A stretch of DNA of 64,000 bases, taken from contig CAJOGI010000007.1 in NCBI GenBank assembly GCA_905234075.1, positions 19,550 to 83,549 of the forward strand, written 5' to 3'. The notes under the pieces were generated by a model. That model was not told the origin of the DNA, did no database searches, and saw nothing but the letters and a program-made list of their open reading frames with translations. Made by a program: the position numbers and the translations under genes. Below, piece after piece: positions 435 through 54,190 of this stretch (the first letter of the stretch is position 1; each line of letters opens with the position of its first letter). This DNA is from an uncultured Synergistales bacterium. GTDB lineage: Bacteria; Synergistota; Synergistia; Synergistales; Aminobacteriaceae.

Positions 435-467
435 GTTAGGAGTTAAGAATTAGGAGTTAGGAGTTAA
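435..467. repeat. TAGGAGT-family heptamer tandem repeat (5'UTR of the 506 gene)
   Basis: The sequence is gttaggagttaagaattaggagttaggagtta, read directly. Confidence 0.7.
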
Positions 468-505
468 AAAAACTGCTAAGTCCTCAAAATTAATTAAGGA
501 GTGTT

Positions 506-2713
506 TTGAGTTTGAGAGCAAGAAAAAATCTGCGCGTAATTTTTTTATTATTAATTATTATTATGTTTTCAACTTCAACGGCGTTTTCAGCAGCACGGAG
601 AAAATCGAAAAATTCTTATGACATTATAATCGCCGGAGCAGGCACTGGAGGAATGGCCGCCGCTATACAGGCAGCGCGAATGGGCGTTGAAGTTTTAATC
701 GTCGAGCCGAGCACATGGATCGGAGGCCAAGCTACAGCCGCAGGAGTCTCGACTATGGACGACATGAGCAGACAGTCGAGCGGCATATATAAAGAATTTA
801 TTAACCGAATGAGAGATTTTTATGAGTATCACGGAAAATCTATGGGGACATGCTACTGGACTTCCAACAGCGTTGCATTCGAGCCGCATATCGGACAAGA
901 GTTTCTCGTCGCGCTTGTCAATGAGGCACGCAGAAAAAGCACGATAGATTTTTTGATGACTTCGGAAATTATCAGCGTCAACAAAAATAAAAATAAAATC
1001 ACCGGCGTTACTGTCAGAACTCCTGAAGGCGATAAGCGTTACGCCTGCAAAATTTTAATCGACGCGACGGAATACGGCGATTTAATCCCCCTCTGCGGAA
1101 TACCCTACAGGGCCGGAAATTCAATGTCGCCCTTCTTAAATCCCGACGCTATGGTCCAAGAAATTACCTGGCCCGCCGTAATTCATAGATACATGCCCAC
1201 CGTGCCGGACTACTTAAAACCGCGTGAGCCTCTGCCCGGTTACGAACTTGCGAAAAGAAATTACGAAAGCTATGTCTCTGCTGACGGATTTAATTTCAAA
1301 AATACTTATCCAGTTCAAACGCCCGTTAATTTTATTACGCATAACGCTTACAGGGGACTTCCCGACAGCTCGAACCCCTACAGCTATGACGCGGACAAAG
1401 AGAACAGAGAATATATTACTAAGACCGTTTTGAACTGGGGCAACGATTATCCCGGCACTTACGCTTGGAACGGAAAGCGCGGACTCCCCGTCGCCTATCT
1501 CGAGGACAGAGAAGTAAGAAAAGAATTTGAGCGCGAAGCTCTCTTAAAAACCCTTCACTTTATTTATTACATTCAGAACGAACTCGGCGAAGAATGGAGC
1601 GTCGCTGATGATGAATATAAAAATAGAATTTTGCCTGAAGCCGCCAGAGGACTTCCGCCGGAATGGCAGGAGATTGTTAAGCGTATGCCCGTTATTCCGT
1701 ATGTCAGAGAGTCGCGCAGAATTATCGGACATCATACTTTAACTTCACATGAGCTTCTTCAAAATTCATTGAGCTACAGGGACGGGCAGACGAGCCACGA
1801 ATTTTCAGACGCTATTGCGATAGGGGGCTATATCTTAGACCTTCACGGCGCGAACACCGACGCTGATATGGAATGGGATTTAGACGAACGCTCTAACACT
1901 TCCATAGTCAACAGACCGCGAGGGCCTTTCCAAGTTCCTATGAACATTTTAATTCCTAAAGAGACTGACGGATTTATAGCCGCCGAAAAAAATTTATCGA
2001 TGTCGAGACTCGCTCAGGGTGCTTTGAGATTACAGCCGATTACAATGATGACGGGGCAGGCCGCCGGAGCGTTGGCAGCAGTCGCGGTCATGGAGAAAAA
2101 AACTCCGCGTGAAGTTCACCCGTTGAGCGTCCAGTGGGAGCTGCTTAATGCCGGAGTTAATTTGTCGCTTTGCAAATATTCTGACGTTCCCGAAACTCAT
2201 TCGCTTAATAAGAGCGTTCAGCTTTCAAATTTATACGGCTTTGCTGCTCCTATCGATTACCCTCATTCAGTGCCGTTTAATCTCGGAGTTTATGACGACC
2301 CAGTGTGGGAAATGGCAATAATTAAAGGCGAGGACATGGGCGTGTTCGGCCTCAATGAATTAATTACGACTGGGGACGCGGCGAGAATTATAACGAATGC
2401 TCAAAATGTTTTAGGAATGAAAAGGCGTGCTCCTTCCGGGCTTGAGAAAGATAAATTAATTACACGCGGGGAATTAGCGAAGGCGGTGTATGAAGCTTTC
2501 CCGGCTCTGAAAAATATTCCGCGCAAGAGAGGCTCAAAGCTCCCGTTCAAAATCGAGAGCAACAGAAATCAAGATTACGTTACGGCTCTCGCGCACTTAG
2601 GAATTTTGAACGTCTACATGATTGACGGAACTTTTCATTACGGGCGGCCCGTTACAAAAGGCGAAGCGGTTGACATAATCGTGAGGGCCTGCGTAAATTT
2701 TGTGAAAAATTAA
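506..2713 (+). CDS. secreted FAD-dependent oxidoreductase (PF12831-like) with C-terminal SLH-like repeats
   Basis: N-terminal signal peptide. A GAGTGGMAAA Rossmann dinucleotide motif is present. The C-terminal segments ITRGELAKAVYEAFP and FHYGRPVTKGEAVDIIVRA resemble S-layer homology motifs. Confidence 0.55.
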   Translation: MSLRARKNLRVIFLLLIIIMFSTSTAFSAARRKSKNSYDIIIAGAGTGGMAAAIQAARMGVEVLIVEPSTWIGGQATAAGVSTMDDMSRQSSGIYKEFINRMRDFYEYHGKSMGTCYWTSNSVAFEPHIGQEFLVALVNEARRKSTIDFLMTSEIISVNKNKNKITGVTVRTPEGDKRYACKILIDATEYGDLIPLCGIPYRAGNSMSPFLNPDAMVQEITWPAVIHRYMPTVPDYLKPREPLPGYELAKRNYESYVSADGFNFKNTYPVQTPVNFITHNAYRGLPDSSNPYSYDADKENREYITKTVLNWGNDYPGTYAWNGKRGLPVAYLEDREVRKEFEREALLKTLHFIYYIQNELGEEWSVADDEYKNRILPEAARGLPPEWQEIVKRMPVIPYVRESRRIIGHHTLTSHELLQNSLSYRDGQTSHEFSDAIAIGGYILDLHGANTDADMEWDLDERSNTSIVNRPRGPFQVPMNILIPKETDGFIAAEKNLSMSRLAQGALRLQPITMMTGQAAGALAAVAVMEKKTPREVHPLSVQWELLNAGVNLSLCKYSDVPETHSLNKSVQLSNLYGFAAPIDYPHSVPFNLGVYDDPVWEMAIIKGEDMGVFGLNELITTGDAARIITNAQNVLGMKRRAPSGLEKDKLITRGELAKAVYEAFPALKNIPRKRGSKLPFKIESNRNQDYVTALAHLGILNVYMIDGTFHYGRPVTKGEAVDIIVRACVNFVKN

Positions 2714-2740
2714 AAAAACACTTGTGATATAATAATCAAA

Positions 2741-2774
2741 GCAGTTCCCCTAAATCGAGGGGAACTATTTTTTT
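2741..2774 (+). terminator. rho-independent terminator (agttcccc-loop-ggggaact followed by a T-run)
   Basis: Hairpin spans 2743-2766 and the T-run spans 2767-2774, directly downstream of the 506..2713 gene. Confidence 0.55.
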
Positions 2775-2797
2775 GGGGACTACTCTGGGGACTACAG
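2775..2797 (+). repeat. GGGGACTAC-N3-GGGGACTAC direct repeat, copy 1 of 3
   Basis: The sequence is ggggactactctggggactacag. Nearly identical copies lie at 51369 and 62343 in the opposite orientation. Confidence 0.7.
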
Positions 2798-2909
2798 AAA
2801 TTTTTATTTTTTTAGAGACGATAAATTTTTACGAAGCTGATAAAAAAAATAATGATAAAAAATTTTTCGGAGGCACTCAAAAAATTTCGAGCCGTATTTT
2901 TGAGTGCTT

Positions 2910-3392
2910 TTATAATTTTTGAATGACATCTTCCGGCGGAAGAGCCTCTATCATTTCTTGAAGGGTCTTCTTATTTTCCGGGTGCCGCCACGCGGACGGA
3001 AGTATATCCTTCAACGGCACAAGCACGAATAATCTTTCAGGCAGGCTTATATGAGGAACATTAAGCACCGATGATTTATAAACAATGTCGTCAATCAACA
3101 GAATATCAATGTCAATTTTTCTTGGCCCCCAGCGCACGGACTTTTCACGGCCAAGCTCATTTTCAAAATTTTTTACAGCTCTCAAAATTTCGAGAGGCTC
3201 AATAAAATTTTCTCTCTCGACTTTCGCGCAGGCGTTAAGGAAATCAGGCTGAACTACACCGCCCCATGCCTTAGTTTCATAAATGCCGCTGACGCTCGTT
3301 ATTTTTCCGAGCGATTTTATTTTTTCGAGAGCGTCACGGAGATTTTTTAACCTGTCGCCCAAATTTGAGCCGAGCCCGAAATATATCTGCAT
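2910..3392 (-). CDS. folK: 2-amino-4-hydroxy-6-hydroxymethyldihydropteridine pyrophosphokinase
   Basis: MQIYFGLGSNLGDRLKNL...WGPRKIDIDILL is the HPPK family signature. Confidence 0.85.
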   Translation of the reverse strand: MQIYFGLGSNLGDRLKNLRDALEKIKSLGKITSVSGIYETKAWGGVVQPDFLNACAKVERENFIEPLEILRAVKNFENELGREKSVRWGPRKIDIDILLIDDIVYKSSVLNVPHISLPERLFVLVPLKDILPSAWRHPENKKTLQEMIEALPPEDVIQKL

Positions 3393-4768: not shown

Positions 4769-4803
4769 CTTCCTCCTACTTCCTAACTCCTAATTCCTAC
4801 TTG
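4769..4803. repeat. TAGGAGT-family heptamer repeat (minus-sense), immediately after the cdd stop
   Basis: The plus strand reads cttcctcctacttcctaactcctaattcctacttg. Confidence 0.7.
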
Positions 4804-4813
4804 CTTTTAGCTT

Positions 4814-5257
4814 TTAATAGTCCGGGTCAAGAGTGAATGAATGAGGCAATAATTTTTTCAGCTCGTAAACTTTTGCTTCGCCCTTTGAAGCCATCACGAC
4901 CAGCATATCTTTATTAAATTCCATTAGAGCCTGACGGCACGCGCCGCACGGAGGACACTCAACTTTGAAATAGTCGTCGCTGTCCTCGTGTGAACCCGCA
5001 ACGGCGACGGCAAGAGGATTTTTTTTGCCCTGCGAAATCATTATGACGACTCCGGCACGCTCGGCGCAGATTGTAATTCCGTATGAAGCATTCTCAACGT
5101 TGCACGACTTTATAACTTCGTCATTTTCAAAAAGCATTGCTGCCCCGACATGAAAGCGCGAATAGGGAACATATGCTCTGTCCGCTGCCTCACGAGCCAT
5201 TTTCAGAAGCTCTTCGGGAGAAATTTTTTCTGAAGGCCAGTTTTCTTTTGCTGACAT
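4814..5257 (-). CDS. cdd: cytidine deaminase
   Basis: CAERAG and PCGACRQ zinc-binding motifs are present. Length is 147 aa. Confidence 0.85.
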   Translation of the reverse strand: MSAKENWPSEKISPEELLKMAREAADRAYVPYSRFHVGAAMLFENDEVIKSCNVENASYGITICAERAGVVIMISQGKKNPLAVAVAGSHEDSDDYFKVECPPCGACRQALMEFNKDMLVVMASKGEAKVYELKKLLPHSFTLDPDY

Positions 5258-5505: not shown

Positions 5506-6987
5506 ATGTCTTATCATGAACTAACAGCTGAAGAAATTGCAATGCTTGAAGAAATGGTCAAGAAGGCCAAGAAAGCCGCTGAAGTTGTTGCAACGTATGA
5601 CCAGGAAAGAGTCGATAATCTGTGTAGAGCAATCTGTGCGGCTCTCTATCCGCTCAAAGTCTGGGGATCGATTTGCGACGAAGCAGTTGACGAGACAAGG
5701 CTCGGCGACAAAGTTACAAAACGCGACAAGCGCGACAAGCTGAAATTAATTCTCCGCGACTGCCTGAGACAGAAGAGCGTCGGAATTATTGAGACGATCC
5801 CGGAAAAGGGTCTCGTGAAATATGCAAAGCCCGTCGGAGTTATCGCTACACTCGTCCCGGCTACAAACCCCTGCGTTACTCCTGCAGGCCAAGCCATTTA
5901 CGCCGTGAAGGCACGCGACGTTCTCATCTGTTCGCCGCACCCGAGAGCTAAAAAAGTTACAGCGAAGACGGTTAATATTATTCGCGGAGTTCTTGAACGC
6001 GAGGGCGCACCGGCTGATATTATTCAGGTAATCGAAGAGCCAAATATCACATTAACTCAGGAGTTAATGAAAATGGTTGACCTCGTAATCGCTACGGGAG
6101 GCCGTCCGGTGGTCAGGTCTGCTTACTCGTCAGGAGTTCCGGCTTACGGTTCAGGCGCAGGAAATTCTACCGTCATCGTTGACAATACCGCGAACACTAA
6201 AGAACGCGCCTACGAGGCCGCAATGAACACTAGAATTTCAAAATGCTCCGACTTTGGCTCAGGCTGTTCATGCGACGGAAATTTAATCGTTCATGAAAGC
6301 GTTTACGATAATTTTGTCGAGGGACTTATCAAAGAAGGCGCGTATATCCCGACTTGGGAACAGGCCGAAGCAATTAAGAAAGTCATGTGGGACGAGACGG
6401 GGCAAAGACTTCCCGACACCGTTGCAATTTCTCCGCAGGCTCTCGCAAAAGCGGCAGGCTTTGAAATTCCTGCTGACAGAAAATTTATCGCGGTTCCCAA
6501 CAACGGACAGAAAGAGGGCTTCACGATCAACAATGCCGAAGATATTAAGAAGTGCATCGGCAAAGAGCATTTCTTCTCGACAGAAAAATTGACAACGCTT
6601 CTGACTCTGTTCAAGTATGGCGGAGAGTTCCAGACCGCGCTTGACATAATGCAGGAAATTTTTGACAAGGCCGGCGGAAAAGGACACTCCTGCGGTCTTT
6701 ATTCATTCGATGACGATCACATTCACCGTCTTGGAATGTGCGCACCTGTTTCGCGCTGCATGATAAGACAGCCTAACAATCGCGGCAATGCAGGAAGCAC
6801 GACAAACGGAATGCCTCCGACTAACTCAATGGGCTGCGGCACATGGGGAGGCAATATCGTCAGCGAAAATATTACTCTCAAGCACTACATGAATACTACT
6901 TGGGTTGCCCGTCCTATACTTGAGGACATGCCTTCGCTTCAGGCTCTCTTCGGAGAATTTTACAAGGACGGCATGGACGAAGAGTAA
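5506..6987 (+). CDS. CoA-acylating aldehyde dehydrogenase (EutE/PduP/SucD-like ALDH superfamily)
   Basis: ALDH-like fold. A catalytic Cys region is present (GSGCSCDGNLIVHESV). Length is typical of acylating aldehyde dehydrogenases. Confidence 0.55.
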   Translation: MSYHELTAEEIAMLEEMVKKAKKAAEVVATYDQERVDNLCRAICAALYPLKVWGSICDEAVDETRLGDKVTKRDKRDKLKLILRDCLRQKSVGIIETIPEKGLVKYAKPVGVIATLVPATNPCVTPAGQAIYAVKARDVLICSPHPRAKKVTAKTVNIIRGVLEREGAPADIIQVIEEPNITLTQELMKMVDLVIATGGRPVVRSAYSSGVPAYGSGAGNSTVIVDNTANTKERAYEAAMNTRISKCSDFGSGCSCDGNLIVHESVYDNFVEGLIKEGAYIPTWEQAEAIKKVMWDETGQRLPDTVAISPQALAKAAGFEIPADRKFIAVPNNGQKEGFTINNAEDIKKCIGKEHFFSTEKLTTLLTLFKYGGEFQTALDIMQEIFDKAGGKGHSCGLYSFDDDHIHRLGMCAPVSRCMIRQPNNRGNAGSTTNGMPPTNSMGCGTWGGNIVSENITLKHYMNTTWVARPILEDMPSLQALFGEFYKDGMDEE

Positions 6988-6989
6988 TT

Positions 6990-7023
6990 CAGGTAGGAAT
7001 TAGGAATGAGGAGTTAGGAAGTA
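6990..7023. repeat. TAGGAGT-family heptamer repeat after the aldehyde dehydrogenase stop
   Basis: The sequence is caggtaggaattaggaatgaggagttaggaagta. Confidence 0.7.
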
Positions 7024-7142
7024 AAATACAAAACTTTCTAAACTTAAATATAAATTTTTTACAGGCTCCGTGTAAAAAGCGGGGTCTATTTTTTATGATA
7101 AAATAAAATTAATTTCAAAAAAAATTTTAGGAGGTTTTTAAT

Positions 7143-11826: not shown

Positions 11827-11880
11827 TTAGGAGCTAGGAGCTAGGAAGTAGGAGGTAAGAGCCTAACTCCTAATTTTTTT
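11827..11880 (+). terminator. terminator hairpin built from TAGGAGC/TAGGAAG heptamer repeats plus a T-run
   Basis: The sequence is ttaggagctaggagctaggaagtaggaggtaagagcctaactcctaattttttt. Confidence 0.55.
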
Positions 11881-21397: not shown

Positions 21398-21540
21398 TAT
21401 TTCATTATCTTTGAGCTTAAAACCGCGCAGGTATTCTTGAATTTCAAGTATTTTTTCTCTTAACCGTATGTCAGCGTAAATTTTCTTATGCTCATTTTGC
21501 GCCTCCCTGATAAAAAATCTTACGAAAAAAACAATGAGGA

Positions 21541-21575
21541 TTAACTCCTCATTCTTAAATCCTAACTCCTAACTA
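21541..21575. repeat. TAGGAGT-family repeat plus terminator hairpin (aatgaggagttaatcctcatt followed by a T-run on the minus strand) after the L,D-transpeptidase gene
   Basis: The plus strand reads ttaactcctcattcttaaatcctaactcctaactaaaaat. Confidence 0.6.
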
Positions 21576-25036: not shown

Positions 25037-25067
25037 ACTCCTGCCTCCTAATTCCTAACTCCTACCT
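25037..25067. repeat. TAGGAGT-family repeat between livH and livM
   Basis: The plus strand reads ctcctgcctcctaattcctaactcctacctg. On the minus strand it is followed by a T-run. Confidence 0.65.
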
Positions 25068-25069
25068 GA

Positions 25070-25951: not shown

Positions 25952-25976
25952 TAAAAATTTATAGCTCCTTTTATTC

Positions 25977-26124
25977 AGGTAGGAGTTAGGAATTAGGAGG
26001 TAGGAGGTAAAAAGCAGTCTGAGATTCTATTAAGGCCGTATTTCCCAGACTGCTTTTTTATTTAGGCAGAAAGTAAGATTTTCTTATCCATACTTCCTAC
26101 CTTCTACCTCCTACCTCCTACCTG
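25977..26124. repeat. composite element: inverted TAGGAGT-family repeats (25977-26009 and 26091-26124) flanking a bidirectional terminator hairpin (gcagtctg...cagactgc, 26014-26053) between livK and livH
   Basis: The left arm caggtaggagttaggaattaggaggtaggaggta and the right arm tacttcctaccttctacctcctacctcctacctg are imperfect reverse complements of each other. The central hairpin has flanking A- and T-runs. Confidence 0.65.
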
Positions 26125-26126
26125 TA

Positions 26127-28518: not shown

Positions 28519-28827
28519 TTAAAATCCGCAAGCGGCTCGTCTGTCCATCAGAAAATTATATTGAACTTCGTAATTATCCCAAGTGATTTTTTCTTTTTTG
28601 TAGTCGTCTAAAATTTTTTTCGTGGGCGCGTATTCCTTGCGGTGTTCGTATTTACAGCCGCATATGACTTTGAGAAAATATTTTAAGTCTTTTTTCTTCG
28701 CGAATCCTGCGAGCTGTGTACTGTTGTGAAGCCGAACGTCAATTAGAAGTTTTATATTTTTCTGCCTTATCGTCTCAAAAAATTGTTCGGCTGATTTTTG
28801 AGTGAAGCCGATTGTGTAAATAATCAT
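28519..28827 (-). CDS. DUF488-family protein (N-terminal portion, possibly truncated by a frameshift)
   Basis: MIIYTIGFTQKSAEQFFETIRQKNIKLLIDVRLHNST matches the DUF488 N-terminal signature (IYTIGHS...DVR). The ORF ends early. Confidence 0.45.
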   Translation of the reverse strand: MIIYTIGFTQKSAEQFFETIRQKNIKLLIDVRLHNSTQLAGFAKKKDLKYFLKVICGCKYEHRKEYAPTKKILDDYKKEKITWDNYEVQYNFLMDRRAACGF

Positions 28828-29028: not shown

Positions 29029-30348
29029 ATGTTCAGGAAAACAGCTTTAATAATATTGCTTGTTATGGCCCTTGCTCCGATGGCGTGGGCGGACGAACAG
29101 GAAGCAGTACAGGCACCGTCAGAGGCAGAGGTCGAAGTTCAGAATGTCTCAGAAGAAGTTGCAGTGCAGACCGAAACCGAAGCTCCGGAGGAGCCCGACG
29201 AACTGACGCTCAAAGAAAACGTGCTCAATGAGAAAGCAGCAGAGCTTGAGAAACTCGCGGCCTCTTTGACTGAGCGTGCGGCGGCATTGTCAAAGAATGA
29301 AAAAGATTTTGCCGCGAAGGCCGCCGTGCTTTCGGGAAAAAGCAAAGAAATTTCCGGCACTGCCACAATGCTGTTAGGGCGCGAAACGCAGGTAAATTCC
29401 CGCGAAAAAGATATTATGTCGCGTGAAGCCGGGCTTGCAAGACGTGAGATGGCGTTTGCCCAAGAAAGCCAGAAGTTTACCGAAGCGTCAGCGGCTTTGA
29501 CAGCGCGTGAAGCTGACATAGCAAAAAGAGAAGCCGACCTCGCTGCACGTGAGAGCGAACTGAACGCGAAAATTTCAGCAAAAGAAGAAGCCGATAAAAT
29601 TTCAGCGCGTGAAGCAGATTTAGTGAAGCGTGAAGCAGCTTTGACAGAGCGCGAAAATACACAGAACAGGCTCGCCGCACTTGAGAGTGAATTAAACGCT
29701 AAGGCCGAAGAATTAAAATCACGCGAGGAAGAAGTCGCAAAGCGTGAAAATTCTGCAACGGAGCAGGAAAAAAATATTTCGGCAGCTATCAAAGAGATCA
29801 ACGAACACGAAGCCGCGACCGCGAAAAAAGATTCAGAACTTAACGCACTCGAAAAAGATTTTGCCGCGAAGAGCAAGAAACTTGCCGACGATACAAGCGC
29901 ACTGACGGCACGTGAAGCCGCGTTGGCAAACCGCGAAAAAGCCGCAATCGTTAAGGCTGCCGAAGTTGCTGAACTTGAGACTTTAATTAAAGAGCTCCCG
30001 GCATTCGACCCTAATAACTCGACTGAAGCCGCAATGATTTTGACGTATAAACTTCCGGCGCAGACAAGACGCGATTTAATCGCAATGCAGAGGACGGCGT
30101 ATCAAAAATACAGCTCCAACAGAGTTACTCAGGCTCTCGAAGATTATGCGAAGGCTTACGAGACTGCCCCCGACGCAAATTATTTAGCGGCATACTGGGC
30201 AGGACTTTCAGCAGAGAGACTTCGCAACAGGCGCGATGACGCTCTCGAATGGGCGAACAGGGCATTAACGATTAATCCGGAATACAAACCCGCGCAGGAA
30301 CTTAAAGCCAGGCTTGAACGCGGCCAGAGAAGACGCGGCAGCAGGTAG
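29029..30348 (+). CDS. secreted coiled-coil repeat protein with C-terminal TPR-like region
   Basis: Signal peptide present. Tandem AREADxAKREAxLxARE repeats are present. The stop codon TAG is the first TAG of the downstream heptamer repeat. Confidence 0.5.
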   Translation: MFRKTALIILLVMALAPMAWADEQEAVQAPSEAEVEVQNVSEEVAVQTETEAPEEPDELTLKENVLNEKAAELEKLAASLTERAAALSKNEKDFAAKAAVLSGKSKEISGTATMLLGRETQVNSREKDIMSREAGLARREMAFAQESQKFTEASAALTAREADIAKREADLAARESELNAKISAKEEADKISAREADLVKREAALTERENTQNRLAALESELNAKAEELKSREEEVAKRENSATEQEKNISAAIKEINEHEAATAKKDSELNALEKDFAAKSKKLADDTSALTAREAALANREKAAIVKAAEVAELETLIKELPAFDPNNSTEAAMILTYKLPAQTRRDLIAMQRTAYQKYSSNRVTQALEDYAKAYETAPDANYLAAYWAGLSAERLRNRRDDALEWANRALTINPEYKPAQELKARLERGQRRRGSR

Positions 30349-30410
30349 GAATTAGGAGTTAGGAGTTAGGAGATTTTTTATTTCCTAATTCCTAAATTCT
30401 CATTCCTCAT
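30343..30410 (+). terminator. terminator hairpin formed by direct and inverted TAGGAGT-family repeats with a T-run
   Basis: The sequence is caggtaggaattaggagttaggagttaggag-atttttta-tttcctaattcctaaattctcattcctca. Confidence 0.6.
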
Positions 30411-42132: not shown

Positions 42133-42140
42133 CTAGAAAA

Positions 42141-42188
42141 TAGAAATTAGAAGTTAGGAGTTAATTTCATTCTTCGCTCCTAACTATA
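42141..42188. repeat. TAGGAGT-related hairpin between the convergent SSF and cysE genes
   Basis: The sequence is tagaaattagaagttaggagttaatttcattcttcgctcctaacta. Confidence 0.5.
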
Positions 42189-42979
42189 ATTTTTCCAGGC
42201 TGTACGGAATGAGTCAGCCACACGTTGCCTCCGATCACGCAGTTGTCGCCGATTACGGTTTCGCCGCCCAAAATTGTCGCGCCTGCATAAATTATTACGT
42301 TGTTCCCTATGTCAGGATGACGCTTAATTCCTTTTACTAAAGTTCCGTCAGGTTCGACTGCAAAACTTTTTGCGCCTATCGTAACATTTTGATAAATTTT
42401 CACGTGATTTCCGATCGTTGAAGTTTCGCCGATAACAACTCCCGTTCCGTGATCAATGAAAAAATATTCGCCTATTGAAGCTCCCGGATGTATATCTATT
42501 CCCGTGAGTCTATGGGCATATTCAGTTATTATTCTTGGAATTAACGGGACTTTCATACCATAAAGCTCATGAGCAACTCTGTACGCGCTTATTGCGATAA
42601 AAGCAGGATAAGCAAGAATTATCTCATCAGGAGTTTTCGCGGCAGGGTCTCCCTGATATGCCGCCGTTATATCTGTCAATAAAATTTTGCGTATATCAGG
42701 GAGTTTTTTTATTAAATTCGCTGCAACTTCTTCGGCTTTGCGTTCATTATTATTAAAAATTTTTTTGAGCGCGTGAATTAAATTTTCACAAGCCGATTCT
42801 AAATTTTCTGCAATGCTCTTGGCCTCGCTATTAACATGCGAAGGAAACATCGCCGCTTGAATTTTTATAAACGATTTTTCAGCACGGTCTTTAATTCCGT
42901 TGTAATTAAATTCGTCTTCTGCCGTTAAAATTTCTAATTCGTTTTCAGTAAAACTTAAAGCCTCTTCTAAAAAATTCAT
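42167..42979 (-). CDS. cysE: serine O-acetyltransferase
   Basis: SATase N-terminal domain followed by left-handed hexapeptide repeats (DHGTGVVIGETSTIGNHVKIYQNVTIG). Confidence 0.85.
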   Translation of the reverse strand: MNFLEEALSFTENELEILTAEDEFNYNGIKDRAEKSFIKIQAAMFPSHVNSEAKSIAENLESACENLIHALKKIFNNNERKAEEVAANLIKKLPDIRKILLTDITAAYQGDPAAKTPDEIILAYPAFIAISAYRVAHELYGMKVPLIPRIITEYAHRLTGIDIHPGASIGEYFFIDHGTGVVIGETSTIGNHVKIYQNVTIGAKSFAVEPDGTLVKGIKRHPDIGNNVIIYAGATILGGETVIGDNCVIGGNVWLTHSVQPGKIIVRSEE

Positions 42980-45346: not shown

Positions 45347-45406
45347 TTATGATTACTCTCCGTTCATTCTTTTTACGTATTAAATTATAGCAGAGTTTTC
45401 CTCTTT

Positions 45407-45434
45407 CCTACCTCCTAACTCCTAACTCCTACCT
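45407..45434. repeat. TAGGAGT-family repeat (minus-sense) in the divergent lipoprotein/PBP1A intergenic region
   Basis: The plus strand reads cctacctcctaactcctaactcctacc. Confidence 0.65.
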
Positions 45435-45488: not shown

Positions 45489-47897
45489 ATGAATGAGAGA
45501 AATAATTTCCGAGAAAATCCAGACGGAGATAAAAGAAATTTTAGAATGAGTCCCGATGAAATTCTTTTGTTAAAACAGCAGAGGCAGCGGCAAACTCAAG
45601 GCCAGCGACGGGATCGGCCGGCTCCTCAAAAATCCAGACCGAGAAAGAAAAAAAGAGTTTCAATCTTAAAAATAATATTCGCCACCATCTTAATTGTAAT
45701 TTTGCTTGCGACAGGAGCATTAAGCGCGGGCGTAGCGTGGTATGTCGTAAAACTTTCCGAAGATCTTCCGAGCATGGTCGAACTTGCCAACCCTAAGAGC
45801 AGTCTGCCGTCAATTTTATATGACAGGAACGGCGAAGTAATTGCGAGGTTGTTTATAGAAAATAGAACGCCTTTAGAACTTCATCAAATTTCTCCTGAAC
45901 TTGTGAGGGCTGTTTTAGCGGCTGAGGACTCCGCGTTTTATCAGCACGGCGGAATTAGAATAGGCTCTATCATGCGTGCTTTGTGGACAGACGTTGTCGA
46001 AGGCGGAAAAGTTCAGGGGGCCAGCACGATAACGCAGCAGCTTGCAAGAAATTTATTTTTGTCGCACGAGAAGAGCATAACAAGAAAAGCTAAAGAGATT
46101 ATTATCGCGATGAGGCTCGAAAAACTTTTCCCTAAGGATAAAATTCTTGAGCTTTATCTGAATACAATTAACTTCGGGCGCGGAGCTTGGGGAGCAGAGA
46201 CGGCGGCGCGGACATATTTTGACAAGTCAGCGAAAGATTTAGACTTAGCTCAATCGTCGATTCTTGCAGGATTAATCGCGAACCCGGGACGCTATAACCC
46301 GTTGAGCAGTTTGAACAACGCTAAGGCAAGACAAAATTACGTTCTTGGCAGAATGGAGACTTTAGGCTGGATCACGCCGGAACAGAGACAGGCTGCTTAT
46401 GACGAAGAATTAGAATTTAGAAGCCGCCCGAACAAAGTCGAAGAATATAACCAAGCTCCTTATTTTGTGTCGCATTTATTATTTAATGACTTGCTCCCTA
46501 AATACGGCAAGGACGAAGTATATAGCGGCGGTATGCAGATTTATACTACGCTTGATATAAATTTGCAGGACAAGGCCCGCGAGGCTATACAGGGTCTCAA
46601 TAAAAATATCATGGGCGCATTAGTGTGCCTTGAGTCCGACACGGGAGAAGTTTTAGCTTTGGTCGGCGGAAAAGATTTCAAAGAAAGCAAATTTAACAGG
46701 GCTACTCAGGCAATCAGGCAGCCCGGCTCAAGTTTCAAACCTATAGTTTACGCGGCGGCAATGGAAGAGGACGTTATGCCCAGCGATCATTTTCTTGACG
46801 CTCCGATAACTTTCAAGCAGCCCGGTGGACGCGGCAAGGGCTGGTCGCCTCATAACTCAAGCAACGGATATTCAGGCGAGGTTACTTTGCAGAGAGCTTT
46901 GACAAGTTCATTAAACACTGTTGCCGTTAGAGTGGCGGCTTTTATCGGAACTGACGCTATAGTCAGAATGGCACGCAATATGGGAATAGAGACGAAATAT
47001 CTGCCGAATGATTTATCAGTCGCATTAGGTTCGGCAAGTTTAACTCCGTTAGAAATGGCAGTGGCTTTTAACTGCTTCAACAACGGAGGAAAAAGAATTG
47101 TCCCGTTAATGATACGCGAGATCCGCGACAGGGACGGAAATATTTTAGAGCAGCGCGAGACAGCATCGAGTCAGGCAATGAACCCGGAGACAGCTTATGC
47201 GATACGCTCAATGCTTCAGGACGCGGTGAGGGCAGGAACGGGAAAACCTGCGGCTTTGCCAAAAATAAACGTCTTTGGAAAAACAGGAACATCGAATGAT
47301 TTTATTGATGCTTGGTTTGTCGGAGGCGTTCCGGGATTAACTACGGCTGTGTATGCCGGACGAGATGACCATAAAACGATGGGAAGGCGTGCTTTCGGAG
47401 GTACGATCGCGGCACCGGTCTGGAAAAAATTTATGAGCTTTGCAGTACAAGAAATGTCAACGCCGGAAAATTTTGAAGCTCCCCCTGCGTGGGTGAACGT
47501 CAGCAAAGTTTCAATATGCAGAAGTTCAGGATATTTAGCTCGCTCCGGCTGCGCTGCTGTGCCGTTATTTTTTCCAAAAGGAAAATCGCCGACGGCATCA
47601 TGTCCTCTTCACGGCGGAAGTTATAGAGCGGCTGAGGACGATCCGAGAGGGCCGAGACTTTTCTTAGTAGATCAGGACGACTCGTATCTTGCAAAAATTG
47701 AGAGCAGAGAGCGTGAAGATAGTTCGTCATCGTCATCACAGACTGAATACGCTCCGCCTCCTCAGCAGGTTACTGCCCCTGCTACACAAGCGGCCGTGCC
47801 GCGACCGAGTGCGCCTGCACCTTCGAGACAGGAGCCAAAACTCAACGAAGTCGAACAGCGTTACAGACAATTACTTAGAGAATACGGAATTGAATAA
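45489..47897 (+). CDS. mrcA: class A penicillin-binding protein (PBP1A; GT51 transglycosylase plus transpeptidase)
   Basis: GT51 motifs are EDSAFYQHGG and QGASTITQQLARN. The transpeptidase SxxK motif is SSFKP. A Pro/Ser-rich C-terminal tail is present. Confidence 0.85.
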   Translation: MNERNNFRENPDGDKRNFRMSPDEILLLKQQRQRQTQGQRRDRPAPQKSRPRKKKRVSILKIIFATILIVILLATGALSAGVAWYVVKLSEDLPSMVELANPKSSLPSILYDRNGEVIARLFIENRTPLELHQISPELVRAVLAAEDSAFYQHGGIRIGSIMRALWTDVVEGGKVQGASTITQQLARNLFLSHEKSITRKAKEIIIAMRLEKLFPKDKILELYLNTINFGRGAWGAETAARTYFDKSAKDLDLAQSSILAGLIANPGRYNPLSSLNNAKARQNYVLGRMETLGWITPEQRQAAYDEELEFRSRPNKVEEYNQAPYFVSHLLFNDLLPKYGKDEVYSGGMQIYTTLDINLQDKAREAIQGLNKNIMGALVCLESDTGEVLALVGGKDFKESKFNRATQAIRQPGSSFKPIVYAAAMEEDVMPSDHFLDAPITFKQPGGRGKGWSPHNSSNGYSGEVTLQRALTSSLNTVAVRVAAFIGTDAIVRMARNMGIETKYLPNDLSVALGSASLTPLEMAVAFNCFNNGGKRIVPLMIREIRDRDGNILEQRETASSQAMNPETAYAIRSMLQDAVRAGTGKPAALPKINVFGKTGTSNDFIDAWFVGGVPGLTTAVYAGRDDHKTMGRRAFGGTIAAPVWKKFMSFAVQEMSTPENFEAPPAWVNVSKVSICRSSGYLARSGCAAVPLFFPKGKSPTASCPLHGGSYRAAEDDPRGPRLFLVDQDDSYLAKIESREREDSSSSSSQTEYAPPPQQVTAPATQAAVPRPSAPAPSRQEPKLNEVEQRYRQLLREYGIE

Positions 47898-47934
47898 TTA
47901 AGAATTAGGAGCGGAACATCTGCCCCTAATTTTT

Positions 47935-49317
47935 TTAGGCTTTATGCAAAGAAATTTTGAAAGTGCTTCCCTTGCCCTTTACGCTCTGAGCCGTTATTGT
48001 TCCGCCGTGAGCTTCAACGGCTGCTTTGACAATCGCAAGCCCGACTCCGCTTCCGCCCGTAACTCTCGTGCGAGACTCGTCCGCCCTGTAAAATCTTTCA
48101 AAAATGTTCGGCAGATCTTTTTCAGAAATTCCTATACCGGTGTCGCTGACCTCAATAAAAATTTTATCGTCCGCCGAAAATAATTTTGTCTTAACTTTTC
48201 CGCCCTTGTTAGTGTAGCGCAGAGCGTTCGAGAGAAGATTATCAATTACGTGTCTGAATTTATCTCCGTCAATTTCACAGAATAAATTATTTTCAAGCTC
48301 GGCTGAAAAATTTATTCCTGCTTTCTCAAAAACAGGCTCAAAACTTTCAAGCACAGGCTCTAGAAATTTTTTCATGTCCGTTTTTTCCGTATGGATTTCG
48401 AGCGATTCACCTTCTAGGCGCGTCAGGGCTTCGACATTTTCAATTAAACCTCCAAGCCTGTTTATTTCGTTCGTGCATAATTCCAAGCGTTCGGGCGTAG
48501 GCTCTAAAATTCCGTCGGCTATCGCTTCAATCTGCGTTCTTACTACAGTTAAAGGCGTTCGCAGTTCGTGAGCTACATCGACCATTAAACGGCGGCGCAG
48601 TTTCTCCTGACCGGCGAGCGAGTGCGAGAGATTTTCAACTCCTTTTATTAAGTCGTCAAGCTCTTTAATTCCGACGGGCAAAAGATTTTCAGAAGTTTTG
48701 TAATCGCCCTTCGCAATTTTTTTCGTCCGTTCAATAACTTTTATGACGGGACGGCTCAATTTTTCCGCGACTAGACAGCCGACACCGCAGGCAAATAAAA
48801 TCATTATCAACGCTCCGGCCATCGTGTAGCGCAATAAATAATCTATAAAAGAATTTTCGTAGCGTCCGCTTGGAAGTTTTCGCTCAATTTCAAGACGGCC
48901 GATATTTTTTTCGCCTCCGAGTCTCAAAGTTATATGCTCGGAATTTGCCGTATTATCATTTTCATTGCTATTAACGTTCATGTGTCCCTTATGAGACATT
49001 TGAAGCGGCCTTAACGTAAAAATTTCACGGCCGTTTCTGTCAATTAAAGTTATCGTCATTCCAAACCATTGAGGCGCAGGGCGTAAGATGTCCATCACGC
49101 GGCGGCGTTTCCATATTCCGCCCTCTTCCTCGTAAAGTTCCGTTAAAGACTCTCCGAGATTTTCGAGGTCTGCCTGACGACGCTGAACCTGATAATTTCT
49201 GAAGGCATTGACGCTCAAGTGGAGGCCGAGCACGGGCACGACAATCCCGCTCAAGACCGCAAGCAAAACATAAAGCGCGAGAAAATGTCTGCGCAGCGAT
49301 TTATTTTTCATCGTCAA
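47935..49317 (-). CDS. sensor histidine kinase (periplasmic sensor, HAMP, HisKA with H-box VAHELRTPL, HATPase_c)
   Basis: Two TM helices flank an approximately 140-aa periplasmic domain containing a His-containing stretch, SHKGHMNVNS. Confidence 0.85.
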   Translation of the reverse strand: MTMKNKSLRRHFLALYVLLAVLSGIVVPVLGLHLSVNAFRNYQVQRRQADLENLGESLTELYEEEGGIWKRRRVMDILRPAPQWFGMTITLIDRNGREIFTLRPLQMSHKGHMNVNSNENDNTANSEHITLRLGGEKNIGRLEIERKLPSGRYENSFIDYLLRYTMAGALIMILFACGVGCLVAEKLSRPVIKVIERTKKIAKGDYKTSENLLPVGIKELDDLIKGVENLSHSLAGQEKLRRRLMVDVAHELRTPLTVVRTQIEAIADGILEPTPERLELCTNEINRLGGLIENVEALTRLEGESLEIHTEKTDMKKFLEPVLESFEPVFEKAGINFSAELENNLFCEIDGDKFRHVIDNLLSNALRYTNKGGKVKTKLFSADDKIFIEVSDTGIGISEKDLPNIFERFYRADESRTRVTGGSGVGLAIVKAAVEAHGGTITAQSVKGKGSTFKISLHKA

Positions 49318-50411: not shown

Positions 50412-50479
50412 AGATTTTGAGGGGCTTTTTAGAAAAGATTTTTTGATATAAATAAAAATTTTTAGGAGGTAACTTAATT

Positions 50480-50965
50480 ATGAAAAAAATATTAGCAGTA
50501 ATCGTAGCAGTGTGTGTAGTTTTTGGAGCAGCAGCGGCGTTCGCCCAGCAGGGAAGAGATAACAACGGCACTCAGGAATTTCGCGGTCAGCCGCAGTTTA
50601 ATCGCCAGAATTTCAACGGACAGCGCGGAAATTTTCAGAACTACCCGGCAAATTTTGAAGGCTGTTCTCCCGATTTCGGCCCGCGTCGCGGCAACGGCAG
50701 AATGGGCGGAATGAATTTCACCCCCGACATGCCCAAAGAGATCCGCGAAAAAGCCGCAGACCTAGCAAAACTTCGCATAGACCTTGAAGAAGCTCTTTCA
50801 AGCAGGCCGGTTAATAAGGCAAAGGCTCTTGATGTTCATGCGAAAATGCAGAAACTCCAAAACGAGATCGATACTTGGAGATTTCAAAAGAGGCTTGAAC
50901 GCATTGAGGAATTTCAGGAAAAAAGAGAACTGAACAAAAAAGCGCAGGACGCTCCAGAAAAATAA
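50480..50965 (+). CDS. periplasmic CpxP/Spy/ZraP-like (LTxxQ-family) protein
   Basis: Signal peptide present. FTPDMPKEIREKAADLAKLRIDLEEA and downstream helices resemble the LTxxQ-motif chaperone family. Confidence 0.45.
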   Translation: MKKILAVIVAVCVVFGAAAAFAQQGRDNNGTQEFRGQPQFNRQNFNGQRGNFQNYPANFEGCSPDFGPRRGNGRMGGMNFTPDMPKEIREKAADLAKLRIDLEEALSSRPVNKAKALDVHAKMQKLQNEIDTWRFQKRLERIEEFQEKRELNKKAQDAPEK

Positions 50966-51224: not shown

Positions 51225-51368
51225 ATTAAATTCCTCCGTGAATTTTTTTCTAAACGCTGCAAAATAATTTTACACTATCGGCAAAAAAATTTTCATGAAA
51301 AAAATTCGCACTCTTATTTTTTTCTTGGACTTGTGAAATTTTGTGAACGCTGAAAGATTTTAATATTT

Positions 51369-51391
51369 CTGTAGTCCCCATTGTAGTCCCC
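51369..51391 (-). repeat. GGGGACTAC-N3-GGGGACTAC direct repeat, copy 2
   Basis: The plus strand reads ctgtagtccccattgtagtcccc. Confidence 0.7.
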
Positions 51392-51516
51392 AAAAATATT
51401 TTTCTCTCAAAAATTTTCGTGAATGGATTAGAATTTATTTTATCATAAAATTTTCCGCGCCGGCTCAAAAAAAAATGAGAAGTGTTTTTTCACTCCTCAT
51501 TCTTGAAATATTAACG

Positions 51517-52800: not shown

Positions 52801-52865
52801 GTGAAAAAAAATCTGCCCTCTTTCATAAAATTAATTATCAAGCGTGAGATTATATCACTTTGTTC

Positions 52866-52925
52866 AGGTAGGAGTCGGGAATTTTTTTAACCTCCTAACT
52901 CCCACCTCCTAACTCCTACTTCAAA
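52866..52925. repeat. TAGGAGT-family inverted repeat/hairpin that overlaps and encodes the last approximately 11 codons of mnmA
   Basis: The sequence is caggtaggagtcgggaatttttttaacctcctaactcccacctcctaactcctacttc. The mnmA stop lies at 52887-52889 and the C-terminal EVGVRRWELGG is encoded by repeat sequence. Confidence 0.65.
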
Positions 52926-54029
52926 AATCGTTCCTCCGCCAATAACTAAATCGCCGTCATAAATCACAGCCGCTTGGCCTCGTGCAGGAGTTTTAATTTT
53001 TTCTTTGAACTCGATAATTAATTCATCGTCGTTAATTTGATTAATAATTGCAGGAATTTCTTTTTGACGGTAGCGCGTTTTGACTTTAGCGCAAAAATTT
53101 TCGGGCAGGTTATCGAACGCAATTAAATTTGCGCCGGAAATTTTTATTTTGTCGCAGTATAAACCGGCTTCGTCCTCCGGGACCAGAGTTATATTATTTG
53201 TAACGCTGTCGATTTTTGAGACGTAGAGGCGCGATTTTGCGGCGACTCCGAGCCCCCTGCGCTGTCCTGTCGTATAGTGAATTATTCCCTTATGAACGCC
53301 CAGAATTTTTCCCGAAGCGTCAATAAAATTTCCCGACGGATATTTTTTACCCGTGAAAATTTCTATAAATGCTCCGTAATTGCCGTCGGGTATGAAACAA
53401 ATATCCTGCGAGTCGTTTTTCTTTGCGTTAATAAAATTTAACTCCTGCGCAAGCTCACGGACTTCAGTTTTTTTCATGTCGCCCAAGGGAAATTCTGTTC
53501 GCGCCAACTGCTCCTGTGTCATCATATATAAAACATAACTTTGGTCACGCGATAAGTCTTCGGCCTTGAATAATAAAAATCTCCCCGAAGAATCTCGTTT
53601 GATTTTTGCGTAATGGCCAGTTGCGATTTTTTCAAGCCCTGATTCATTCGCGTGTTTCAGCAAAGCGCCGAACTTCAAAAATTTATTGCAGTCTATGCAG
53701 GGGTTGGGAGTTCCGCCGTCCTCGTAAACGCTGACGAATTTTTTTATAACGCTGTCCTCAAATTCCTGCATTAAATTCAAGACTTCGTGTTCAATGCCCA
53801 AAGTCTCACAGATTTTTTTCGCGTCAATTATGTTTTCGCGCGAACAGCACGGATATTTTGACGGGACTCCAAGAGACTCGTTCAGAAATAAAAGCATTGT
53901 CGCGCCGACGCACGTTTTATATTTTTGAGCCATTAAATAAGCGGAGACACTGCTGTCAACGCCCCCGCTCATAGCTATCAGGGAGGAGTTAGGAATTAGG
54001 AGGCAGGAGGTATTTTTTTCATTCATCAC
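52887..54029 (-). CDS. mnmA: tRNA 2-thiouridine(34) synthase MnmA
   Basis: PP-loop motif SGGVDSSV and catalytic Cys region NPCIDCN. The N-terminal MMNEKNTSCLLIPNSS and C-terminal VGVRRWELGG segments are encoded by heptamer-repeat DNA. Confidence 0.85.
   Translation of the reverse strand: MMNEKNTSCLLIPNSSLIAMSGGVDSSVSAYLMAQKYKTCVGATMLLFLNESLGVPSKYPCCSRENIIDAKKICETLGIEHEVLNLMQEFEDSVIKKFVSVYEDGGTPNPCIDCNKFLKFGALLKHANESGLEKIATGHYAKIKRDSSGRFLLFKAEDLSRDQSYVLYMMTQEQLARTEFPLGDMKKTEVRELAQELNFINAKKNDSQDICFIPDGNYGAFIEIFTGKKYPSGNFIDASGKILGVHKGIIHYTTGQRRGLGVAAKSRLYVSKIDSVTNNITLVPEDEAGLYCDKIKISGANLIAFDNLPENFCAKVKTRYRQKEIPAIINQINDDELIIEFKEKIKTPARGQAAVIYDGDLVIGGGTIFEVGVRRWELGG
53979..54011. repeat. TAGGAGT-family repeat inside the 5' end of mnmA
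   Basis: The sequence is cagggaggagttaggaattaggaggcaggaggt. Confidence 0.65.
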
Positions 54030-54156
54030 AATAAATTCGCTTTCTATTTTTTTTTATTTCTGCCCAGCCTAATTATTTTAATAAGGCGGTTGCGTAGAAA
54101 GCAGGAAATAGGAGCTTCCCATAAATTTTATTTTCACTTAAAAATTTTTTCATCTT

Positions 54157-54190
54157 TAACTCCTAACTCCTACCTCCTAACTCCTACCTA
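54157..54190. repeat. TAGGAGT-family repeat (minus-sense) immediately after the aminotransferase stop
   Basis: The plus strand reads ttaactcctaactcctacctcctaactcctacct. Confidence 0.7.

Follow-up and report, generated by a model that had tools for sequence, protein, structure and literature searches.

Tandem G-rich heptamers, GGGAATC in Xanthomonas and GGGGA(C/T)T in Nostoc PCC 7120, are 7-nt units with one G-rich, C-poor strand that are rare between divergent genes, occur in part as inverted pairs, vary in length and sequence among close relatives and neighbor genes of no particular functional class (Rehm et al., 2015, PLoS One; PMC4692102). For the GGGNATC repeats a G-quadruplex has been proposed, and its three-tetrad form was used to explain the preference for four units (PMC4692102). 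Another heptamer, the TAACTGA direct repeat of marine Beggiatoaceae, cyanobacteria, and Bacteroidetes, forms short sets of 2–6 copies that place stops in the three forward frames, are largely intergenic with an orientation fixed relative to genes, in some cases overlap the preceding gene's stop codon, differ between strains in 7-nt steps and are sporadic across phyla (MacGregor, 2015; PMC4679880). These sets lie chiefly just upstream of starts and have neither Shine-Dalgarno character nor predicted RNA structure, and one inverted ('indirect') set was reported (PMC4679880). More broadly, 'long simple sequence repeats' (Mrazek et al., 2007) and STRR heptamers are, as they are summarized in PMC4679880 and PMC4692102, tandem heptanucleotides that certain lineages carry in excess between their genes, with polymerase slippage suspected. 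The STRR family was defined for heterocyst-forming cyanobacteria, and its arrays are often far longer than those described below. Classical STRR units are CCCCAGT, TTGGTCA, and CAACAGT. The REP/BIME sequences of enterobacteria are dispersed intergenic palindromes past stops or between cistrons, able to form 3′-stabilizing RNA hairpins; REPs are fixed palindromes of ~35 nt mobilized by RAYT and not tandem heptamers.

Here, we describe arrays of the heptamer TAGGAG(T/G), hereafter TAGGAGK, in a 64-kb stretch of DNA (the window) from an uncultured gut-type Synergistaceae MAG. The arrays share with the Rehm repeats and with the TAACTGA sets the traits listed above for each, save those contrasted below, and, like the long simple sequence repeats, they are over-represented in intergenic DNA of particular lineages. 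They differ from the Rehm repeats in that the unit holds a TAG stop and a Shine-Dalgarno-like core, in a tighter distance to the stop (median about 5–8 nt) and in their hosts, which are Synergistaceae and also Oscillospirales, Bacteroidota, and Nostocales. In contrast to TAACTGA sets, they lie against stops and often form hairpins, and unlike REPs their copies vary in arm length and loop. Membership in the cyanobacterial STRR family does not apply, the host being a Synergistaceae MAG and the unit a different one, yet TAGGAGT arrays occur in many Nostocales.

Results

An initial annotation had listed tandem TAGGAG(T/G) copies at 14 loci, and period-7 arrays of such units were found at all of them (Table 1), with TRF returning 16 period-7 arrays in the window. 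The family proved real, non-random, and gene-oriented at gene boundaries: TAGGAGK dimers, counted as matches to TAGGAGKTAGGAGK with at most one mismatch, numbered 28 against 0.02 expected from dinucleotide shuffles. The range of 3–6 copies given at first did not hold, as the length is nearly fixed at four units (28 nt) in 12–13 of the 14 arrays; the locus at 47899, already regarded as weaker, has only two. C is wholly absent from 11/14 arrays, and each array holds 1–4 GGAG motifs. The common 5′ end suggested for several copies is visible as (TT)CAGG or AGG ahead of the arrays, with TA(n) or T(n) behind them, and three arrays have the unit order TAGGAGT-TAGGAAT-TAGGAGG-YAGGAGG in common. The tandem 7-nt unit with a G-rich, C-poor strand and the modal length of four units are both features of the Rehm class.

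The sharp four-unit mode suggests a fixed footprint, and (UAGGAGK)n fits exactly, by sequence, the motif UAG-N4-UAG-N4-UAG published for HutP (PMC2425495), as would be expected if a ring-shaped protein bound the RNA by one triplet every 7 nt. A related thought is that the arrays are G-quadruplex elements, paired TAGGAGG units being predicted to permit a two-tetrad form. We hold this pair of readings to be very improbable. There is no HutP-like gene among the genes of the window, and the spread over cyanobacteria, Bacteroidota, Firmicutes, and Synergistota disfavors one specific regulator. No quadruplex is predicted for (UAGGAGU)4 by ViennaRNA with quadruplex terms, and no unit has a three-G run; with GG runs only, the four tracts of at least three G that characterize the Rehm class are absent and a three-tetrad quadruplex is impossible.

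Table 1. Arrays of TAGGAG(T/G)-like units and the hairpins they build in the 64-kb window
Position	Strand	Structure	Context
433..466	+	4-unit array TAGGAGT TAAGAAT TAGGAGT TAGGAGT; no inverted partner	divergent spacer ribD(−)/FAD oxidoreductase gene(+)
4772..4799	−	4-unit array; no partner	14 nt past stop of cytidine-deaminase gene (4814-5257, −)
6988..7021	+	TTCAGG + 4-unit array	directly after TAA of aldehyde dehydrogenase gene (5506-6987)
11828..11880	+	5-unit array, then inverted CTAACTCCTAA + T7; terminator-like	1 nt past ParA-like gene stop
21533..21574	−	degenerate 4-unit array; last unit in hairpin AATGAGGAGTTAATCCTCATT + T7; terminator-like	past YkuD gene stop
25037..25069	−	TCAGG + 4-unit array; T-runs follow; no convincing partner	5 nt past LivH-like gene stop
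25974..26126	−	composite array structure; folds at −67.9 kcal/mol, z −9.2	behind binding-protein gene stop
30343..30409	+	4-unit array, 7-nt loop, inverted 4-unit copy (30382-30407)	first TAG is the stop of a 439-aa gene
42134..42195	+	degenerate array TAGAAAA TAGAAAT TAGAAGT TAGGAGT; last unit pairs with GCTCCTAAC, then T-run	1 nt past SSF transporter gene stop; convergent genes either side
45404..45431	−	4-unit array	divergent spacer (44249-45346 on −, 45489-47897 on +)
47899..47936	+	weak 2-unit remnant in hairpin, then T7; ordinary-looking terminator	past PBP1A gene stop
52862..52923	−	62-nt hairpin module: G-rich arm 52891-52918, A-run loop, C-rich arm 52866-52882 (+) ending CAGG	
53983..54010	+	inverted 4-unit arm, C-rich in mRNA	overlaps mnmA 5′ end
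54159..54186	−	4-unit array; pairs with 53983-54010	1 nt past aminotransferase gene stop

The claim that the arrays sit close to stop codons, with the sense strand reading TAGGAG, was borne out. The stop of a co-oriented gene lies at most 15 nt 5′ of the array start for 10/14 arrays (among them one whose ORF reads through the array) compared with 0.63 under random intergenic placement (P<5e-5), and when the orientation is flipped only 1/14 remain. The G-rich arms begin 0–14 nt past stops, and the 5′ end of the G-rich strand is always set against an ORF boundary, as in the Rehm class and in the same way across phyla. Exceptions to stop adjacency are the arrays at 435 and 45407, in divergent spacers, and the inverted partners at 25977, 52866, and 53979, beside the start of the gene that follows; the C-rich partner arms at 25980 and 53983 adjoin the starts of the LivH gene and of mnmA on the non-coding strand. 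An all-frame stop on both strands had been proposed, and the sense strand does close three frames in 11/14 arrays, but the expected TAA in three reverse frames is found in 2/14, and one antisense array is even translated, as the MnmA N-terminus.

A stretch 0–14 nt past a stop is within or close to the reach of a terminating ribosome. This placement, the GGAG motifs and the C-rich arms beside the next start would suit a ribosome-directed module, in which Shine-Dalgarno-like units bind the 16S rRNA tail after termination and lead to reinitiation, or in which translation is coupled as the G-rich arm is melted and the C-rich arm unmasks the start. A start at Shine-Dalgarno distance does follow the array in a 26-aa ORF (54073-54153), in mnmA of two related loci (L137 and L263) and in an extra gene of the strain L139. 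Still, such a module seems unlikely to us, and reinitiation, which the initial annotation had put forward, is doubtful as a general role. A nearby start is absent after most arrays, those of the window precede terminators or convergent genes, and in other genomes 5/52 co-oriented downstream ORFs begin within 15 nt. The TAGGAGT unit also occurs in Bacteroidota, in which Shine-Dalgarno pairing plays only a small part. Moreover, GGGAATC and GGGGAYT are not Shine-Dalgarno-like, yet have the same four-unit polar architecture (PMC4692102). The Shine-Dalgarno-like reading of the arrays is a weak one.

Pairing with an inverted copy, as first suggested, was seen for several arrays. Where present, the inverted copy is always 3′ of the G-rich arm, so that the transcript order is stop, G-rich arm, loop and C-rich arm, followed in some cases by a U-run or by the start of the following gene. 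A partner of at least 9 nt within 150 nt was found downstream of 3/10, 28/114, and 32/102 arrays and upstream of 0, 1, and 0, respectively. Two-arm hairpins have predicted energies between −17 and −74 kcal/mol and z values as low as −9.2, and only about four array hairpins carry a U-tract: a stable hairpin with a sense-strand U-tract is present at 11828, 21533, 42134, and 47899, no such tract follows the hairpins at 30343, 52862, and 54159/53983, and there is no hairpin at 435, 4769, and 45407. Five loci had been named as rho-independent terminators; at 11827, 21541, and 42141 a hairpin is indeed followed by a T-run, while the hairpins at 30343 and 52866/52891 lack a sense U-tract. Array-built terminators, as judged from predicted folds, are a minority of the arrays. 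A convincing inverted partner is missing for 5/14 arrays (435, 4769, 6990, 25037, and 45407), and hairpin formation is therefore not a complete explanation. Beyond the array at 6988..7021, a distinct GC-rich terminator follows at 7063-7094.

Two spacers can be compared with those of relatives. Between the 439-aa gene and dnaJ, the array hairpin at 30343..30409 (−32 kcal/mol, z −5) stands where two relatives (L135 and L129) have a GC-rich terminator hairpin, and a U-tract in the sense direction is absent. Between the binding-protein gene and LivH, an ancestral hairpin is kept in all relatives and is flanked in the window by an additional array on either side, so that the order in the mRNA is a G-rich array (26093-26120, −), the ancestral hairpin with its U-run (about 26012-26066), and an inverted array (25980-26007, +) that ends about 29 nt ahead of the LivH start.

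At mnmA the arrays have entered the coding sequence. The pair formed by 54159..54186 and 53983-54010 spans 148 nt (−73.7 kcal/mol, z −5.6); its C-rich arm encodes TSCLLIPNSS within an N-terminal extension of MnmA, and the ancestral start (MSILIAMSGG) is gone in the window. The mnmA frame also runs through the G-rich arm 52891-52918 (..GGGTIFE followed by VGVRRWELGG and the stop), where the TAA of the array closes a 10-residue array-encoded tail, whereas relatives stop at ..GGGTIF; the old stop was probably lost through a 1-nt loss in the preceding T-run. The mnmA array pair is kept across species at 74–88% protein identity, which hints at selection on at least the mnmA locus.

Among strains and relatives, the arrays change in whole units, as slippage-type simple-sequence repeats do. 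A close strain (L139, 98% identity) differs from the window at two arrays, at 45412 (−7 nt) and at 54160 (−14 nt), that is, one unit fewer at 45404..45431 and two fewer at 54159..54186, and these changes in array length are 2/10 indels in 20.7 kb. The strain L126 has a 4-nt indel at the distal end of the 4769 array, and in L128 (95% identity) the arrays are kept with altered units, that at 25037..25069 being conserved. Period-7 arrays reach a density of 2.4–2.8 per 10 kb in L128, L139, and the window itself, and of 1.65 in L137; L262 and L263 have small ones, and none occurs in the other Synergistaceae loci (L129, L131-L136), which together cover about 130 kb. The comparison of orthologous intergenic regions that had been recommended thus gave a patchy presence among related Synergistaceae and one empty site: the 62-nt module at 52862..52923 is absent in L263, where 5 nt stand between flanks conserved on both sides.

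This clean contrast of a filled and an empty site would be expected of a mobile palindromic element, MITE- or REP-like, with a hairpin of ~60 nt and inverted, CAGG-ended heptamer arrays as termini, whose insertion at gene ends would need a transposase from another part of the genome. The 5′ end (TT)CAGGTAGGAG common to many copies, the unit order common to three, the expansion of the family in one lineage only and an insertion that overwrote the mnmA start codon and three more codons are consistent with such an element. Nevertheless, we judge this origin, raised in the initial annotation as a MITE-like alternative, to be improbable: target-site duplications are lacking, the loops and spacers (7 to 148 nt) differ from copy to copy without relation and with no constant internal sequence, and at 25974-26126 the two arms enclose an ancestral hairpin, features that set the arrays apart from MITEs. 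In addition, many arrays are single arms, copy number shifts in 7-nt steps as in a simple-sequence repeat, unrelated phyla have the same architecture with different flanks, no transposase is found among those of the window's genes that were Pfam-scanned or had been called before, and the 64-kb window holds no RAYT (IS200-like) transposase gene.

TAGGAGK arrays with the same four-unit mode and polarity are present in Nostocales, Bacteroidota, Oscillospirales, and others, and most reference-genome matches to the pattern belong to Nostocales. In other genomes too, four units are the modal length (50/140, 56/97, and 27/67 arrays). The array 5′ end coincides with the end of a co-oriented ORF (100 codons or more) for 46% of arrays in reference genomes, 54% in metagenome contigs, and 58% in viral contigs, against 4%, 5%, and 9% in the antisense orientation. 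There, a median of 8 nt lies between stop and array, and about 110 nt separate the array 3′ end from the next gene.

Discussion

It seems to us somewhat probable that the TAGGAGK arrays are lineage-amplified, purine-rich heptanucleotide simple-sequence repeats that are tolerated in one orientation and supply hairpin arms. Such arrays would arise and be resized through replication slippage, and template switching, or a copy taken from a different locus, may supply the inverted arm. Arrays would be retained only at the sites and in the orientation that the transcript tolerates, as a C-free tract closing all frames behind a stop. Pure slippage predicts a broad spread of lengths, yet the mode at four units is sharp, and it leaves the tight stop distance and the strict polarity unexplained. 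The 62-nt single insertion and the unit order common to three arrays look more like the copying of an element than like growth in place.

When paired, amplified arrays of this kind would be hairpin stems between cistrons or at 3′ ends, a role that we infer from their position and predicted folds. A few may be intrinsic terminators, and the remaining ones would stabilize the transcript, attenuate it, or couple the translation of adjacent genes. Array hairpins would take over the role of the GC-rich hairpins that relatives have at equivalent positions. That the unit resembles a Shine-Dalgarno sequence is probably incidental, though it may now and then be co-opted as a ribosome-binding site.

By analogy, 'long simple sequence repeats' and the cyanobacterial STRR heptamers appear to be the broader kin of the TAGGAGK arrays. 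The array architecture had already been described for other heptamers before TAGGAGK (PMC4692102), and the likeness places the arrays of this Synergistaceae lineage in the same class as GGGAATC of Xanthomonas and GGGGAYT of Nostoc, of which they would be a further example.

RESULTS

The period-7 arrays are real and the finding is statistically robust. An array was present at each locus named in the initial annotation, and TAGGAGKTAGGAGK, allowing a single mismatch at most, gave 28 matches in the 64-kb window against 0.02 in dinucleotide-preserving shuffles, a count far above that expected from composition. The host, with a GC content of about 43%, is an uncultured Synergistaceae/Synergistales bacterium, as judged from AlaRS, DnaJ and a 1211-aa protein whose sequences are identical to MAG proteins bearing these names. 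TRF reported 16 arrays of period 7. When lined up on the G-rich strand, the arrays were nearly constant in length, with four units (28 nt) in 12 or 13 of the 14; they were usually flanked by (TT)CAGG or AGG on the 5' side and by TA(n) or T(n) on the 3' side, and cytosine was absent from 11 of them. With genes called from ORFs, Pfam and the genes called on matching contigs, the 5' start of the array lay no more than 15 nt past the stop codon of a co-oriented gene in 10 of the 14 cases, compared with 0.63 under random intergenic placement (P<5e-5), and a single array passed the same test once orientation was flipped. The proposed association with gene ends is thus confirmed as non-random. Two of these ten arrays supply the stop with their own TAG or overlap it, and one is read through by the ORF. 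The inverted partners of the minus-strand arrays have G-strand 5' ends that point to where the following minus-strand gene starts, and divergent spacers hold the arrays at 435 and 45407.

It had also been proposed that many arrays, paired with an inverted copy, build rho-independent terminators. RNA folding upholds this for a minority only, since hairpins followed by a U-run were few and the other arrays lacked either a sense-strand U-tract or a convincing partner. A simple terminator scan of the window found no enrichment over shuffles and, among array-associated sites, flagged only 21533, 30359 and 47911; Rfam at the gathering threshold returned two tRNAs and nothing else over the window. 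The idea that the 7-nt period places stops in every frame of both strands held for the sense strand, where three frames are closed in 11 of 14 arrays, and failed for the antisense strand (2 of 14).

Positions of heptamer arrays and other features of the window (strand of an array is that of its G-rich sequence; energies and z scores from RNA folding)
Feature	Position (strand)	Observation
Array with hairpin, then U-run	11828, 21533, 42134, 47899	47899 weak
Array with strong hairpin, no sense-strand U-tract	30343	-32 kcal/mol, z -5
Array with strong hairpin, no sense-strand U-tract	52862-52923	
Long-range array pair, no sense-strand U-tract	26093-26120 with 25980-26007	-67.9 kcal/mol, z -9.2
Long-range array pair, no sense-strand U-tract	54159-54186 with 53983-54010	-73.7 kcal/mol, z -5.6
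Array without convincing partner	435, 4769, 6990, 25037, 45407	
Inverted partner of minus-strand array	25980 (+), 53983 (+), 52866 (+)	52866 is a short two-unit arm
Arrays sharing one unit order	25064 (-), 25980 (+), 53983 (+)	TAGGAGT-TAGGAAT-TAGGAGG-YAGGAGG
mnmA	52887-54029 (-)	
26-aa ORF MKKFLSENKIYGKLLFPAFYATALLK	54073-54153 (-)	starts 6 nt after last GGAG of the 54159-54186 array
Hairpin, binding-protein gene/LivH-like permease gene	~26012-26066 (-)	
Insertion in L128 (4067-5309)	25993-26008	1.24 kb
Second dispersed repeat	2741-2887 (-), 51299-51396 (+), 62250-62399 (+)	~100-150 bp
Indel, DUF488/DuOB gene pair	28543-28545	strain-variable
Site of extra sequence in L139 (7155-7583, reverse complement)	50453-50483	L139 428 bp longer
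21-nt period repeat in 439-aa gene	29599-29655	2.8 copies

Arrays differ between the window and its relatives. In the related locus L126 (99.8% identity) the 4769 array differs at its end by an indel of 4 nt. L139 (98% identity) departs from the window by precisely one unit at 45412 and by two at 54160, which account for two of the ten indels between them over 20.7 kb. L128 (95% identity) has kept the arrays at 25037 and 30343, has changed units at 26091, and carries an inserted cassette of an HNH endonuclease gene and a PHD_like gene adjoining a two-unit, shortened array at the 25980(+) site. No period-7 array was found in about 130 kb of other Synergistaceae loci, a sample comprising relatives with 84-91% identity in the binding protein and one more distant relative; only two useful relatives came from a search for homologues of the 439-aa neighbouring gene. 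In array-free relatives, the spacer between the binding-protein and LivH-like genes holds a conserved central hairpin alone, to which the window adds an array on each side, and the counterpart of the 30343 array hairpin in L135 and L129 is a GC-rich terminator hairpin of the ordinary kind. Moreover, L263 (~85% nucleotide identity) has 5 nt in place of the 62-nt module at 52862-52923 with both flanks conserved, an empty site, and in L137, L262 and L263 there are small arrays that match those of the window in position and orientation. The unit indels, array-free loci and empty site show a family that occurs in a sub-clade, varies in presence between loci and changes quickly.

The hairpin between the binding-protein and LivH-like permease genes is itself conserved across Synergistaceae (loci L131, L133, L134 and L135, around 11140-11300), with a conserved CGGCC in the loop, a U-run, and a stem that varies in sequence with its pairing kept (judged by eye); it had no Rfam match and probably acts between the two cistrons as an attenuator or a stabiliser. 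A second dispersed repeat, with 74% mean column identity over three copies, contains two tandem TGTAGTCCCCA 12-mers and an A-run, forms a hairpin AGTTCCCC...GGGGAACT in two of the three copies, and also occurs in L126, L139 and L263. Both genes of the DUF488/DuOB pair are shorter in the window than in four other strains, the sequence being ~105 bp longer in L001, L002 and L005 and ~276 bp longer in L128. The extra sequence of L139, in a region of strain-variable small hypothetical genes, encodes a small secreted product with abundant Pro and Arg repeats, whose stop abuts TAG-T-TAGGAGT-TAGGAGT and then the next start codon. For the product of the 439-aa gene, Pfam offered no match of confidence, and its coiled-coil-like matches were faint.

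At mnmA, both gene ends have been changed by heptamer arrays. MnmA of the relatives begins with MSILIAMSGG and ends in ..GGGTIF. The window gene lacks the ancestral start, and its ORF passes through an antisense array (MNEKN-TSCLLIPNSS-LIAMSGG); it also lacks the old stop, presumably through loss of 1 nt in the preceding T-run, judging from the relatives' C-termini, and its frame enters the sense array and ends at an array TAA (..TIFE-VGVRRWELGG). The array-encoded tail is 10 residues in the window and 6 in L139, where a TGG-to-TAG change in the 52891 array shortens it. Array-encoded N-terminal extensions (e.g. NSSLLIPNSS) occur in at least eight MnmA homologue clusters of 74-88% identity, and in L137 and L263 the mnmA leader consists of a G-rich arm, the start codon, a short loop and a C-rich arm. 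The array pair thus predates the species, and it may function as a hairpin through which translation of the two genes is coupled. Because the arrays alter the ends of mnmA, homologues are called with very different N-termini. The loop of the long leader hairpin also holds a 26-aa ORF conserved in L139.

Among the matches listed in a one-genome-per-species scan for (TAGGAGK)2TAGGAG, most were from Nostocales, and others from Bacteroidota, Acutalibacteraceae and further groups. A metagenome scan for CAGGTAGGAGKTAGGA returned many human-gut contigs of 55-60% GC, several of them Subdoligranulum/Gemmiger (Eubacteriales) by exact protein matches; neither scan recovered the window's own species. Viral contigs with the pattern were rare (38 of 2.9 million), on which ground a phage-borne element is rejected. 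An ORF of 100 or more codons on the same strand ended within -30 to +10 nt of the array 5' end in 46% of arrays from reference genomes (among the matches listed; antisense control 4%), 54% from metagenome contigs (5%) and 58% from viral contigs (9%), and about 5% of random positions in the reference-genome loci passed. Four units was the mode throughout (50/140, 56/97 and 27/67, respectively). The same rules, four-unit mode and ORF polarity, hold in all three sets. In other genomes the median stop-to-array distance was 8 nt, with ~110 nt from the array 3' end to the next gene. Inverted partners of 9 nt or longer within 150 nt lay downstream of 25-31% of arrays, against 0-1% with one upstream.

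DISCUSSION

Among long simple repeats, heptamers show the strongest over-representation in many bacteria. Our literature searches for tandem TAGGAGT, dimers and single heptamers gave only primers and unrelated matches, the tandem occurring in no paper of the library searched, and a search for follow-up to the 2015 heptamer-repeat papers found none. Rehm et al. (2015; PMC4692102) described repeats of the units GGGAATC (Xanthomonas) and GGGGAYT (Nostoc), and identified no function for them. Those repeats seldom lie between genes that diverge, can be paired with inverted copies and differ among close relatives. The TAGGAGK arrays share with them a length of four units, a 5' end that abuts an ORF and a leading G-rich arm, and they are a fresh member of this known class of purine-rich heptamer repeats, with a new unit and new host phyla. 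The TAACTGA heptamers of MacGregor (2015; PMC4679880) also place stops in all frames and show 7-nt indels between strains; however, they are mostly upstream of start codons and without structure. The unit also matches the HutP motif UAG-N4-UAG-N4-UAG (PMC2425495), a sequence match that we take as a mere lead.

The four-unit preference was tied to G-quadruplex formation by Rehm et al. (2015; PMC4692102). Unlike the Xanthomonas and Nostoc repeats, however, TAGGAGK has no run of three Gs, making a canonical quadruplex impossible, and a quadruplex-aware folding model gave none for (UAGGAGU)4 and a two-tetrad form only for paired TAGGAGG units. Since four-unit length, G-first polarity and contact with stops recur with a non-quadruplex unit, the sole structural rationale offered to date is weakened, and the common factor pointed to is a strand-asymmetric, C-free RNA or DNA beside gene ends. 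A CRISPR-like array is rejected for want of spacers, a phase-variation switch because the neighbours are housekeeping genes of all classes, and a TRAP-type site because the triplet spacing is unfit.

The best-supported reading is that the arrays are slippage-prone heptamer repeats that would be retained beside gene ends in one orientation only and that, with their inverted copies, would act as hairpin arms between or after genes in place of ordinary hairpins. A broader proposal, which we consider unlikely, is that the polar four-unit array behind stops is a convergent RNA or DNA module, independent of quadruplexes and read by universal machinery. For example, a terminating ribosome might melt the C-free tract and hairpin arm and so couple the next cistron; alternatively, the array might provide G-rich RNA for transcription leaving a gene and C-rich, Rho-loading RNA for transcription entering it. 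If true, this proposal would explain the recurrence of the architecture with different units in Proteobacteria, Cyanobacteria, Bacteroidota, Firmicutes and Synergistota. In practical terms, the arrays, which are also present in abundant human-gut Oscillospirales, distort gene calls, as in the array-encoded N-terminal extension and frameshift tail of mnmA, and they flag gene 3' ends.
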